A stretch of 64,000 nucleotides of DNA from Eubacteriales bacterium (GCA_045536965.1 JAZSON010000012.1:147889-211888); one strand, 5' to 3'. Counted from the stretch's first letter, positions 29,559 through 33,133 are shown. The notes: generated from the letters alone by a model not told the origin. Program-made: numbers and translations.

Positions 29559-32500
29559 ATGCACGCAAACTCACCACGCAGTCATCCGGACAAGCTTTGT
29601 CAAAAAGCCGCAGAAAGCATCATGTTTTTGGTACAAGGGTCGTTTTGACCTTCCTCCTGTTGATTTCCTTGTGCCTCGGTACTGTGCCAATGTCTGTCTT
29701 TGCTACCGGGCTTTCTTCATCTCTTGGGGTCGCTTCTGCTTCGGAACCCACCATTCTGTATGAAAAAACCTTTTTACGCAGTGCGTATGAAAAGCATTTT
29801 TTATTAAGCAACGGCAAAAGCGTTGTATATAGCTATGACCAACCCGTGCACTACTTAAAGGACGGCGTTTGGACGGAGGTCGACAACACGCTCGTTTTTG
29901 AAAACGATTCTTACGTCAACCGTTCGGCGTCCTTCTCCGCTTCCTTTGCATCAAGTGCCGACAGTGACTCTCTTTTCTCGTTCACCATGGGCGATTACGG
30001 TCTTTCGCTTTCTCTCCCGGTGATGCAAACGGCTGTCAGCGCCGTCTCCCGCAATACCCTCTTGCAAGAGAGAAGCTTTGAGGGAAAAACTGCGGCGCAG
30101 GCAAACGAGATGGATATCACCCATTCGTCACTCAAGTATGAAAACCTGCTTTCGGGCATGGATATTGAGTACAGCTTGAGCGGCGGCGGTGTCAAGGAAG
30201 ACATTTATTTGGATTCGGCTGCCGCGTGGCAGGACTTGACCTTCTCGCTGACCCTTACCGCATTGACTCCGCAGCTTCTTGCAGACGGTTCTGTCAGCTT
30301 AAAAAATGCCGCTGGACAAGAGGTGTTCACCATGGCCCCCCCGTATATGTACGATGCGGCAGGTGAGATCTCCCATGCGGTCACGTATAAATTGACCTCA
30401 CGCAAAAACGGGTATAATCTGACCCTGGATGCCGACGAAAGATGGTTAAACGCTTCCAACCGCACCTATCCCGTCGTGGTAGATCCGAGCGTCAGCGTGT
30501 CGGGCAGCGGCAACGTGGTCGATACCATGATCCGCGAAGGCAAATCGACGGGGACGTACGGCTCCATGAAATATATGGTGGTCGGCTATTCCACCACCTC
30601 CTCCAACCGACGCAACCGCGGACTCATTAAAATGAGCACCCTCCCCACCATTCCGAGCGGCAACAGCGTCGTTTCCGCCACCCTGACCCTGCGTCAGCTT
30701 TCGGCGGCAAACGACAACTATTCGTGGTCAAACGACAATATCGCAAGCACCAACGTCGGACTTTCCAAGGTCACGTCATCCTGGTCAACCTCTACCTCGT
30801 GGTCAACCATGCCGACCTTTAACACGGCGTTTTTGGATGTAAGGCCTTTTAACGCTACGACCGAAAACGAAACAGCAACCTTTCACATTACCGAAGCGGT
30901 ACAAGAGTGGTATGCCGGTCAGGCCAATCACGGTCTTATGGTCCGCGCCACCGACGATGCCAACTCCTCTCCCGCCAACGTCTATCTGTCTTTCTATACC
31001 ACCGAGCACACCACCGCAGCAAACAAGCCGGTATTTGCTATCTACTATGCCTCGGCTACCGGAGACGAAACCGAACCGAACAATACCGCCGCTGCTGCTG
31101 ATGTGTTGAGCTTTACATATCCCTCTCTTGCGGTGATGGGATCCTATACCGGATTGATTGCAGATAGCGAGGACGTGGATTTCGTTCGATTCACTATGAA
31201 CGAAACGGTTACAGCAAACATCAAGCTCTTTGTTCCCGAGGAGGAAGAGTACACCGTATATGTGTACAATGATGCAGCCGGCTCCTATTTGATCAAATAC
31301 GGAGACGAAGGTATCGGTGAAACGGTAAACATTCCTCTGGTCTTGTATAAAGGCACAACCTATTGCATTAAGATTTTTTCTTCCCACGGCAGTTATTCAG
31401 CTGAAGATTTTTATACACTCACGATCAACTATGCAACGGTAGTGGACAGCAACGCGGTTTATACCATTAAAAACGTCAACAGCGGGAAAGCGCTTTCCAT
31501 TCCACGCACTACGTCTTCTACGGCTATCCAGCATACCTACGGCGGTGCGTATGAACAGAAATTTGTTTTGTCATACTCCGACGGCGGATATTTCATCAAA
31601 ACGTTGAATATGTCCGACCGCCCCGGTAAAAGTTTAGAGTTGCCGAATGAAAGCGACGTTAACGGTACCGATTTGACCTTTGCGCAAGATGCGAATGCGC
31701 CCCGCCAAAAATTTTGTTTGATCGAGTTACCAAACGGCAATTTCCACATCATGCCAAGCCAAAGCAGCAATAAATATTTGGAAGTGACCTATTCTTCTTC
31801 GGCAAACGGGGCAGTCGTGCAGATCTACCAAGACAGCGGACAGTCCTGTTTGGAATGGGAAATCACCAAAGTAGATAATTCACAACCGACTAAAAGCACC
31901 ATTTCGTTCTTCTCAATAGGCGATGATAATTTAGAAGAAACTGAAGAAAATGGCGGAAATATTAGTCCTTATTATTGGTTAATCAATAACACTTCTGAGT
32001 ACGAAGTTTGGAATACACGTACCCGTTTTGACCCAGAAATTTCAAACGATGCCCTTTTGGCAGAAATGACGGAGTCAGATGTAGTGTACATAGAAACTCA
32101 TGGAGATAAACCGGATAATTCACCAGTAGAGTCGTATTATTTTACTTATTATCACCCAAATGGTGAAAATCAAATTGTTTTGAATAGCGACATCGGCACC
32201 ACCTTTACCAATACAGCTAACACCACTACTAACACGCCATTCAGAGGAAACACCAAATGGACGATTATGATGGCATGCAGTCAGTTAAACAGCGGCACGA
32301 CAGCAAACTATTGGGCAAAAGCGTTGCTTGGAGATTACAACCGCATGCACGGCGTGCTCGGTTATTATGGTATAGCTCCGCAAAACTCTGGTGCAGCAAG
32401 AAGAATGGTGGATTTTTATGCTAATCAACGTGCTAGTTATAGTAATTCTATGTTAGAATCATGGCAATACGCAAACGAATCCTGCGGTTCCACATCAACT

Positions 32501-33133
32501 TGGGCGGTTGTAATGCATGAAACGTATTCTAACGATGCGGCTAATGTTGCAGACGAGAATATGTTCTCTGGTTTTGGTGCTGATTTGTCTGCTGGCTCTG
32601 CGGCTACAATATATCGGTACGCTTATGACGATGACGAAACACAGGTTCAATTTACAGCAAATCGCAGTTCCCAAGGTGCTCTTGCGGCTGTGCGCAACGT
32701 TGCTCTGACGTCAGAGCAAACAAATGCGGTAACTTGTATTTTGGGAACAAAAAACAACAGCCGCTTACAGATGGATGCTAACGGCAGAGTTATTTACCAC
32801 GATGATTCTATCAACTATTCTTCGAGATCTGCTGCCTGCAATCTGACTGATGCGCAGATAATTACTCAGGCGGAAAATCAACTTTCAGCCCTTTCACTGT
32901 TGCCTGACGAAGATTATATTGTCTCGGTCAGCCGGACCAGCAGAGAGCGCTTCGATGCCGAGACCGAATCGTTTGTCGAAAAAGAAATCGTTGGTTATAC
33001 CGTTTATTTTCGACACGCTTCAAACGGAAGGGCAATCGAAACAGAAGATGAAAATGAGGGTATATTGTTGCGCTTTACTGCCGACGGACTAAAGGATTTG
33101 GAGTATCATTGGGGTGAGCTTATTACCCAATAA
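29552..33133 (+). CDS. 1193-aa secreted mosaic protein: signal peptide, DNRLRE-like domain, PPC-like domain, ricin-type lectin, and a C-terminal domain with a clan-CD-like His/Cys pattern
   Basis: Signal: RRKHHVFGTRVVLTFLLLISLCLGTVPMSVFA|TG. Aa ~310-500: VDTMIREGKSTGTYGSMKYMVVGY...RNRGLIKMSTLPTIPSGNSVVSATLTL. Aa ~505-627: ETEPNNT..DSEDVDFVRF. Aa ~634-775: three QxF/W lobes. Aa 780-1193: VVYIETHG(850) and TIMMAC(909)S. Confidence 0.8.
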   Translation: MKNARKLTTQSSGQALSKSRRKHHVFGTRVVLTFLLLISLCLGTVPMSVFATGLSSSLGVASASEPTILYEKTFLRSAYEKHFLLSNGKSVVYSYDQPVHYLKDGVWTEVDNTLVFENDSYVNRSASFSASFASSADSDSLFSFTMGDYGLSLSLPVMQTAVSAVSRNTLLQERSFEGKTAAQANEMDITHSSLKYENLLSGMDIEYSLSGGGVKEDIYLDSAAAWQDLTFSLTLTALTPQLLADGSVSLKNAAGQEVFTMAPPYMYDAAGEISHAVTYKLTSRKNGYNLTLDADERWLNASNRTYPVVVDPSVSVSGSGNVVDTMIREGKSTGTYGSMKYMVVGYSTTSSNRRNRGLIKMSTLPTIPSGNSVVSATLTLRQLSAANDNYSWSNDNIASTNVGLSKVTSSWSTSTSWSTMPTFNTAFLDVRPFNATTENETATFHITEAVQEWYAGQANHGLMVRATDDANSSPANVYLSFYTTEHTTAANKPVFAIYYASATGDETEPNNTAAAADVLSFTYPSLAVMGSYTGLIADSEDVDFVRFTMNETVTANIKLFVPEEEEYTVYVYNDAAGSYLIKYGDEGIGETVNIPLVLYKGTTYCIKIFSSHGSYSAEDFYTLTINYATVVDSNAVYTIKNVNSGKALSIPRTTSSTAIQHTYGGAYEQKFVLSYSDGGYFIKTLNMSDRPGKSLELPNESDVNGTDLTFAQDANAPRQKFCLIELPNGNFHIMPSQSSNKYLEVTYSSSANGAVVQIYQDSGQSCLEWEITKVDNSQPTKSTISFFSIGDDNLEETEENGGNISPYYWLINNTSEYEVWNTRTRFDPEISNDALLAEMTESDVVYIETHGDKPDNSPVESYYFTYYHPNGENQIVLNSDIGTTFTNTANTTTNTPFRGNTKWTIMMACSQLNSGTTANYWAKALLGDYNRMHGVLGYYGIAPQNSGAARRMVDFYANQRASYSNSMLESWQYANESCGSTSTWAVVMHETYSNDAANVADENMFSGFGADLSAGSAATIYRYAYDDDETQVQFTANRSSQGALAAVRNVALTSEQTNAVTCILGTKNNSRLQMDANGRVIYHDDSINYSSRSAACNLTDAQIITQAENQLSALSLLPDEDYIVSVSRTSRERFDAETESFVEKEIVGYTVYFRHASNGRAIETEDENEGILLRFTADGLKDLEYHWGELITQ

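Follow-up and report, generated by a model that had tools for sequence, protein, structure and literature searches.

A putatively exported modular protein with a predicted clan CD-like peptidase domain in a Eubacteriales bacterium

An open reading frame (ORF) on the plus strand of a 64,000-nucleotide stretch of a Eubacteriales bacterium (GCA_045536965.1 JAZSON010000012.1:147889-211888), here called the window and numbered from its first nucleotide, encodes upon translation a modular protein of 1193 amino acids (aa) plus stop (29552-33133), identical to entry P0001 of a public protein library. We consider it probable that the product is a Sec-exported protein in which a scaffold, a lectin, a clan CD-like peptidase head and a C-terminal tail are joined, and that such modules have recombined over evolution. 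Central to this proposal is the region of aa 778-1040 (31883-32671, plus strand), for which AlphaFold2 models, Foldseek searches and conservation point to a predicted domain of caspase/hemoglobinase fold (clan CD-like) that is related to DUF6345. An initial annotation of the window had noted a clan CD-like His...Cys pattern in the C-terminal part of the protein, together with an abrupt fall in GC content inside the same ORF, and had suggested a swapped-in head of about 400 aa. On re-reading, its two motifs stood exactly as described: ESDVVYIETHG at aa 841-851, with His850 encoded by CAT at 32099-32101, and TKWTIMMACS at aa 901-910, with Cys909 encoded by TGC at 32276-32278 (both plus strand).

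Predicted fold and conserved residues of the peptidase-like domain

An exhaustive HMMER search with aa 765-1193 retrieved 90 cluster representatives, of which 41 had E <= 1e-10. The homologues split into two modules that usually occur together, corresponding to query positions ~15-270 and ~300-428; the second of these, the tail, is also found alone in small proteins. In a word-indexed protein search, a single-sequence query of the C-terminal region missed the family and a profile query found 2 members only. Where the source of family members was checked, it was a metagenome assembly or a single contig. Neither of two contig scans across 185,579 reference species genomes turned up a relative; taken together with one metagenome scan, these searches gave no usable relative, the sole match being contig L005, 31% identical over aa 82-277. 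No record came back for the window protein or for the scaffold relative P0093 by exact look-up.

Both residues of the proposed pair are conserved; neither a loss of conservation nor any other of the refuting observations listed in the initial annotation was encountered. In an alignment of 21 sequences, 23-41% identical to the window protein, His850, Cys909, Gln911, His933, Thr893, Trp903 and Trp921 are invariant. A wider count over ~68 homologous domains, at roughly 20-40% identity, recovered His850 in 61/61 and Cys909 in 65/66, with the Gly that follows His850 in 55/61; Gln911 (58/66), His933 (63/68), Pro943 (69/69) and Trp971 (67/67) are similarly widespread. As judged from these alignments, the His...Cys pattern is not a chance motif.

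AlphaFold2 was applied to the peptidase-like domain together with the tail, using the 21-sequence alignment (predicted local distance difference test, pLDDT, 77; predicted template modeling score, pTM, 0.82), and to the domain only, using 33 sequences (pLDDT 81, pTM 0.85). Both models show the order b1-a-b2-a-b3(VVYIE)-His850 ... b4(WTIMM)-Cys909-a-b5-a-a-b6, with strand VVYIE stopping two residues before His850. The order b-a-b-a-b-His ... b-Cys-a-b-a-a-b is that of the caspase/hemoglobinase fold, and in the clan CD signature one strand is followed by His-Gly and the next strand by (A/Q)-Cys. In the window protein, conservation and models place the putative catalytic His850 behind the predicted strand VVYIE and before a Gly, and the putative catalytic Cys909 behind the predicted strand WTIMM in the motif A-C-S-Q-L. 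From this strand topology we infer that the two residues would be neighbors in space and form a dyad.

Searches of the PDB with Foldseek agree with this topology. For the two-domain model, the first match was SAVED-CHAT 8tl0 (E 2.7e-4, prob 1.00), with further matches to CED-3, RgpB, caspase-1, separase and Dronc; for the domain-only model, the CHAT proteins DdvA CHAT (8rw5/8rot) and Csx29 (8eey) ranked first, with further matches to RgpB, CED-3, C11 iotapain, separase, MALT1 and caspase-7. The clan CD matches had probabilities of 0.75-1.00, and flavodoxin-like folds ranked below them at low probability. The structure check proposed in the initial annotation thus returned the caspase-hemoglobinase fold, and the His...Cys pattern, essentially invariant and set after adjacent predicted strands, lies in a domain for which clan CD tops the Foldseek results. 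On these models, aa 778-1040 are predicted to be a domain of the caspase/hemoglobinase (clan CD) fold.

Compared with a set of clan CD peptidases (caspases C14, CHAT, gingipain C25, clostripain/C11, legumain C13, separase C50 and the cysteine protease domain C80 of MARTX), the window domain shares the predicted six-stranded alpha/beta sandwich, the His-Gly after one strand and the Ala/Gln-Cys after the next, with His preceding Cys. It differs in the motif C-S-Q, which stands against the Q-A-C-x-G of clan CD, and in a 59-residue stretch between His and Cys that carries a conserved IGxxFxxGSTTKTxSxWN insert and no predicted helix; unlike the members of the set, it has no detectable sequence relationship to any of the listed families.

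A connection to a catalogued family was found through the more distant homologues. Seven of ten of these (P0036, P0044, P0048, P0053, P0059, P0062 and P0083) pass the DUF6345 gathering score of 26.9 bits, at 27.5-38.7 bits and over nearly the whole profile, and the same seven match the window domain at whole-library E values of 6e-13 to 3e-4. Weaker DUF6345 matches were seen in 3 of the 21 aligned sequences. By these profile matches, the window domain is an outlying branch that appears related to DUF6345 at the superfamily level only. In the literature library searched, DUF6345 surfaced only once, as the name given to a protein in a table of the Tannerella forsythia proteome.

Several results weigh against the clan CD assignment and the DUF6345 link. 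The structural similarity is modest, with template modeling (TM) scores of 0.35-0.43 and E values of 1e-3 to 1e-2, and the 59-residue His-Cys stretch is of low confidence in both models, with the caspase helix absent there. No clan CD family (C11, C13, C14, C25, C50, C80 or CHAT) matched the window domain in Pfam/NCBIfam at E <= 1, and neither the window domain nor its closer relatives matched DUF6345 (PF19872), even at E <= 1. An hhalign comparison with human caspase-3 was not significant (prob 0.4%); its sole aligned segment paired GNTKWTIMMACSQ with GKPKLFIIQACRG, setting the Cys909 strand onto QACRG. Among the other searches, a PDB sequence search with the C-terminal region returned antibody chains only, which we regard as noise, profile searches of PDB sequences with the family alignment and with the tail alignment returned nothing, and so did PADLOC on aa 780-1193. 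A DUF2283 match to the C-terminal region in Pfam was at noise level, NCBIfam had no match there, and no Pfam family could be assigned to the last 430 aa.

The same data bear on an alternative in which the domain is not a peptidase. It would then have a flavodoxin or SGNH-hydrolase type fold, in which His850, Cys909 and His933 bind a metal or serve another hydrolysis, or it would be a non-catalytic binding module. The TM scores below 0.5, the third near-invariant residue His933 (63/68), a weak Pfam match to GDSL-like lipases (E = 0.014-0.09, far below the cut-off) and the presence of flavodoxin-like reductases and rhamnogalacturonan acetylesterase in the Foldseek lists, below clan CD, are all compatible with such a view. 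However, the highest-probability matches of two independent models are clan CD, with the others at prob < 0.6; the Ser-Gly-Asn-His blocks of SGNH hydrolases are not conserved, whereas the clan CD signature is present; and His933 lies at the start of strand 5, which, given parallel strands, would place it at the edge of the sheet away from His850 and Cys909. We therefore regard a non-peptidase domain as quite improbable. The GDSL-like lipase assignment itself (Pfam, E = 0.014) was rejected, as the match is far below the cut-off, the SGNH blocks are not conserved and the fold searches favor clan CD.

Scaffold, alternative heads and third-position GC content

The protein starts with a putative Sec signal peptide (aa 1-52; 29552-29707, plus strand), read by eye from the translation as a basic n-region followed by the hydrophobic VVLTFLLLISLCLGTVPMSVFA; the N-termini of the scaffold relatives P0093-P0095 resemble this region. 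A constant N-terminal scaffold follows (aa 60-504; 29729-31063, plus strand), delimited by Pfam/NCBIfam and by the relatives P0093-P0096. It contains a weak match to DUF7948 (aa 176-312) and a DNRLRE/CBM96 domain (aa 324-495) recognized by Pfam and NCBIfam. A beta domain of the PPC (pre-peptidase C-terminal) type was placed with low confidence at aa 505-620 (31064-31411, plus strand), where the sole profile match was a weak one to DUF7490 (Pfam, E = 0.017) and where the pattern ETEPNNT...DVDFVRF is presumably that of a PPC domain. The ricin-type beta-trefoil lectin domain at aa ~621-765 (31412-31846, plus strand) is supported by PF14200 (E = 9.8e-19, three stretches), the Pfam match covering aa 633-708 and flanks.

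A search with aa 60-770 identified four scaffold relatives, P0093, P0094, P0095 and P0096, which are 39-51% identical to the window protein over aa 14-504 and thereby closer to it than the relatives with the whole architecture described below. In all four the similarity stops where the DNRLRE domain does, at aa 502-506, and the sequences beyond are unrelated. The heads they carry there are a ricin domain with an unknown 170-aa domain, an unannotated region with the precomputed tag PF27189 (YkzU), and Big_2 with DUF3289; in scaffold relatives further removed, the heads are Peptidase_M23 or RHS repeats. The expectation in the initial annotation that C-termini are swapped on a conserved scaffold is thus borne out by relatives with alternative heads (DUF3289, M23, RHS, unknown). 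The boundary it had set after the ricin domain is not the one observed, since the nearest scaffold relatives diverge at aa ~504 instead. With the homology break at this position, the differing unit is aa ~505-1193, that is the PPC-like, ricin and peptidase-like domains together with the tail.

Other relatives share the whole architecture. P0004, P0006, P0011, P0014, P0016, P0019 and P0027 have the same scaffold-lectin-head order and are ~24-30% identical in both halves. Within this family the identities of the N and C parts disagree: for P0011 and P0012 the values are 63% (N part) and 39% (C part), and for P0011 and P0019 they are 28% and 48%, respectively. Incongruence, which the initial annotation had tied to an exchanged module, is thus seen within the family in the form of discordant identities. 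In the P0011 locus (L003; 468-5738 and 11668-15924), genes for an integrase, a PemK toxin, a sigma-70-type factor and a DUF4367 protein stand close to the P0011 gene, and a gene for an RHS/YD-shell protein with a DUF7948-like N-terminus comes after it.

The closest C-terminal relative, P0002, is encoded on a 1.8-kb contig (L001) and is 54% identical in the ricin domain, 47% in the peptidase-like domain and 39% in the tail; its identity runs on across aa 773 without a break. A recent swap exactly at aa 773 was considered and is not supported, as the L001 identity is unbroken there. A second protein, P0021, is an internally deleted allele of the P0002 lineage: its C-terminal ~110 residues, from the sequence DFDN onward, match the end of P0002 exactly by inspection, and at its N-terminus it shares 44% identity with window aa 43-112. 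P0021 is 194 aa long (L009, 6001-6585; also L010), occurs on 4 contigs, and joins the scaffold start without a gap to the final ~106 residues at the shared DFDN motif.

These comparisons qualify the idea of a recent exchange. The nearest lineage, P0002/P0021, appears to share both ends of the architecture, so that for this particular gene no swap is demonstrated; orphan head cassettes were absent from the window when four parts of the protein were used in tblastn, with only the gene itself found; and no mobile-element markers were seen around the gene within the window. Since the architecture is shared by the P0002/P0021 lineage and by distant homologues, the fusion seems to be old and not a recent swap in this genome. 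Judged by sequence comparison, exchange is real at the family level, older than the initial annotation implied and involving a larger unit. Of its swapped-in head of ~400 aa, the exchange is retained at that level, while both the size of the unit and the age of the event had to be revised.

The composition of the gene was examined next to this history. The four GC hand counts of the initial annotation (38/60, 18/60, 23/60 and 20/60) were all exact on recount. In 100-codon windows, the GC content at third codon positions (GC3) is 0.62-0.77 for windows starting at aa 101-401 and 0.33-0.46 for those starting at aa 751-1051, with GC1 and GC2 nearly constant along the ORF. A likelihood scan placed the best single change point at codon 773 (31868-31870, plus strand), the boundary between the ricin domain and the C-terminal region, with GC3 of 0.58 before and 0.36 after it and a log-likelihood ratio of 25.3; the maximum among 300 permutations was 8.7. 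The peak is broad, the ratio being 18-24 between aa 500 and 790. By segment, GC3 is 0.646 (aa 99-504), 0.529 (505-772), 0.323 (773-1040) and 0.424 (1041-1193); of these steps, the first (p = 0.003) and the second (p = 2e-5) are significant, and the value of aa 505-772 equals the window background. The drop reported in the initial annotation is consequently real and lies at synonymous sites, but it is stepwise across these four segments and forms no single cliff.

Amino-acid composition, which the initial annotation had named as a trivial explanation, was tested and ruled out as the cause of the drop. Composition and window codon usage together predict nearly the same GC3 in the N part (0.53) and the C part (0.52), and a Mantel-Haenszel test stratified by amino acid, N versus C part, gave z = 7.1; with near-equal expectations and this z value, composition is not the cause, and the shift resides at synonymous sites. 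Against the composition-adjusted background, aa 773-1040 have z = -6.7, and the 39 other window genes range from -3.5 to +6.4. The scaffold, at z = +4.2, lies inside the range of housekeeping genes such as MetG (+6.4); a hydratase gene has +4.8. Two long antisense ORFs lie within the GC3-rich scaffold, 30803-31387 (minus strand, 194 aa) and 30205-30465 (minus strand, 86 aa), and are probably by-products of composition, not genes.

Related loci show where this pattern recurs. GC3 falls from 0.70 in the scaffold to 0.38 in the head in L003 (P0011; neighboring genes 0.54-0.63), from 0.62-0.77 to 0.33-0.38 in L008 (P0095, with a different head) and from 0.69-0.78 to 0.43-0.49 in L006 (P0096, DUF3289 head; neighbors 0.41-0.46). 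In L004 it is low all along (0.33-0.50) beside housekeeping genes at 0.64-0.69, and in L001, the closest relative, it is flat at 0.48-0.59 over the same domains, so that the peptidase-like domain does not by itself entail low GC3. In L003, L006 and L008, GC3 of the DUF7948/DNRLRE scaffold is 0.62-0.78, whatever the background (0.41-0.63) or the head. With proteins only 25-50% identical, shared ancestry of synonymous sites cannot account for the high GC3 of the scaffold, which tends to be seen regardless of host.

A horizontal origin of the low-GC3 segment is suggested by its composition. The steps might instead reflect a codon bias belonging to each module, through selection or biased gene conversion, for example a scaffold that is expression-optimized or often recombining and a head under relaxed codon selection, with no horizontal exchange. 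We regard this explanation as possible, though the less favored one. It accords with the scaffold z of +4.2, comparable to MetG and the hydratase, with the collinearity of the nearest lineage, and with the recurrence of the high-scaffold/low-head pattern in loci that are 25-50% identical and carry different heads; at such identities synonymous sites should be saturated, so the pattern would have to be actively maintained or repeatedly re-created. It is harder to reconcile with the peptidase-like segment, whose z of -6.7 lies outside the range of all 39 other window genes, with the flat GC3 of 0.48-0.59 over the same domains in L001, and with the shuffling in the family, for which discordant identities and differing heads are separate evidence. 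Taken by itself, the GC3 pattern fits repeated transfer of single modules as well as a lasting codon bias of each module.

C-terminal tail, downstream genes and genomic context

The peptidase-like domain is followed by linker strands and a C-terminal alpha/beta tail (aa 1041-1193; 32672-33130, plus strand), in which the model shows a compact module at ~aa 1065-1193. In the two-domain model the tail is a helix on an antiparallel sheet, with pLDDT mostly 83-97 over aa 1045-1193 (model residues 281-429) and one block modeled at a lower value of 66. The PepSY, FTP and YcdB/YcdC models gave no match to the window tail at their thresholds. In 20 homologous tails, Pfam matches were sub-threshold only, namely to DUF4901 (YcdB/YcdC repeat; E = 2e-4), FTP (0.01), DUF6034 and YycI. 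Many relatives continue into a true PepSY domain after the tail, and the window protein ends without one. Like the PepSY/FTP propeptides, which include M4/M36 propeptides and YcdB/YcdC repeats, the tail is predicted to be one helix packed on an antiparallel sheet; unlike them, it lies C-terminal to the catalytic domain and not N-terminal. With low confidence, we suggest that the tail is propeptide-like, possibly of the PepSY/FTP type. As the constant companion of the peptidase-like domain, it might regulate or chaperone the peptidase.

Many family members are stand-alone proteins of ~600 aa that consist of the peptidase-like domain, the tail and PepSY. On contig L002 (32% GC), the stand-alone 602-aa member P0025 is flanked by two related genes (224-1105 and 3192-4067), of which one encodes PPC-like repeats and the other a protein of 291 aa that is tail-module-like by eye.

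Downstream of the ORF, 19 nt beyond its stop codon, a consensus scan identified a G+C-rich hairpin (33152-33172, plus strand) that has 8 G-C pairs and is followed by a weak T tail. It is a possible terminator or attenuator and could separate transcription of the large gene from that of the two paralogues that follow. The first of these (33202-34245, plus strand) encodes a membrane protein of 347 aa that is anchored at its N-terminus, varies in its central part and ends in a hydrophobic block, and is a candidate cognate partner; the second (34294-35265, plus strand; 323 aa) is its tandem paralogue, with conserved ends and a diverged middle. Neither has a Pfam or PADLOC match. The two products are 42% identical overall, with the first 21 and ~last 60 residues nearly identical, and at the DNA level the 5' ends share 87% identity (120 nt) and the 3' ends 90% (230 nt). 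By this comparison, it looks as if an exposed part is diversifying and the ends are kept alike.

In L009, an intact homologue of the downstream genes (371 aa; 6602-7717; 28-30% identical, E ~1e-31) lies 17 nt after the P0021 allele. The closest lineage thus keeps the gene pair, in which the partner outlasts the loss of most of the large gene. Downstream of distant members, at 12-31 nt, L003 (9956-10426) and L004 (9826-10338) encode a small N-terminally anchored protein of 156 and 170 aa, respectively, 39-43% identical to each other. The pattern fits head-specific partner genes, for which, as far as sequence relationships suggest, a role in immunity is a candidate only.

The surroundings of the gene in the window are those of housekeeping and anaerobic energy metabolism, with GpsA, MntP, a TsaD-like protein, MetG, a group A [FeFe] hydrogenase and an HdrA-like protein. 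Upstream of gpsA, two paralogues with overlapping stop and start codons (25096-26223 and 26220-27332; 375 and 370 aa) are 41% identical and have no Pfam match.

Comparison with polymorphic toxins and possible function

The domain arrangement invites comparison with polymorphic toxins. Caspase-like domains were described as C-terminal toxin heads of such proteins (Tox-Caspase; Zhang et al. 2012, PMC3482391), and in the WapA polymorphic toxin of Streptococcus suis a Sec signal and a DNRLRE domain form the N-terminal part (PMC12704120). The window protein resembles these systems in its constant exported N-terminal region with variable C-terminal heads in relatives, in the compositional break between scaffold and head with a caspase-fold domain at the C-terminal end, and in that different heads are followed by distinct small membrane or lipoprotein genes. 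It departs from them in having no RHS shell, recognizable pre-toxin region or releasing peptidase, and in that orphan cassettes were not found in the window. Furthermore, the putative partner is a 347-aa multi-pass membrane protein and not a small cytoplasmic immunity protein, and the head is also widespread as a stand-alone secreted protein.

We propose the following arrangement. Residues ~60-504 form the constant scaffold, of a kind that related bacteria join to RHS shells, an M23 peptidase, DUF3289 or unknown heads, and aa 505-765, with the PPC-like and ricin lectin domains, probably bind surface glycans. Residues 778-1040 would be the effector, a divergent relative of DUF6345 in which His850 and Cys909, at neighboring strand ends, serve as the catalytic dyad of a cysteine endopeptidase that may work outside the producer cell, and the downstream membrane-protein genes may encode cognate partners, for example protective ones. 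On the combined models and alignments, an exported lectin-guided cysteine endopeptidase of a DUF6345-related, clan CD-like family is the most likely identity of the protein. Two observations tell against the effector part of this arrangement: the stand-alone members imply that the unit may be an ordinary secreted protease and not a toxin, and the small downstream gene of L003 and L004 has no similarity to the window downstream genes, so that the partner differs between subfamilies.

The caspase-fold domain could also be a self-processing or maturation peptidase that cuts its own protein or surface proteins of the producer, and not an effector on other cells, for which the cysteine protease domain of MARTX/clostridial toxins and peptidases of the clostripain/gingipain type provide models. 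Its joining, in every case, to a propeptide-like tail and the common occurrence of stand-alone secreted versions without a toxin-type scaffold are in keeping with this, and most caspase-like domains of polymorphic toxins are thought to be releasing peptidases (PMC3482391). Nothing but the tail lies C-terminal to the domain, however, which leaves no other head to release, and the equivalent position on the scaffold holds M23, DUF3289 or RHS-type heads. We consider self-processing unlikely as the main function, and the preferred assignment remains the exported lectin-guided endopeptidase, which may be a toxin, a secreted protease of a general kind or an enzyme that processes itself.

A more far-reaching reading, which we put forward tentatively, is that the DUF6345-like domain represents a new clan CD family with a C-terminal propeptide-like regulator, used both by itself, as a secreted enzyme, and as a head that can be exchanged on the DNRLRE scaffold of effectors that anaerobic Gram-positives export by Sec. 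The diversifying multi-pass membrane proteins encoded downstream would then be protective, and the opposite GC3 offsets of scaffold and head in several loci would mark horizontal module exchange. In kind the finding is unsurprising, as caspase-like heads on polymorphic toxins were already predicted in 2012. The predicted fold and a mutable dyad, His850/Cys909, give a testable function to a family that is known nearly exclusively from metagenomes and is partly catalogued as DUF6345. Should the scaffold-high/head-low pattern of GC3 hold in more loci, it could be a possible marker for module boundaries. Finally, the DNRLRE/DUF7948 scaffold of WapA-type toxins carries non-RHS heads as well, which suggests that the Sec-exported, lectin-guided effectors of anaerobic Gram-positives form a broader set.

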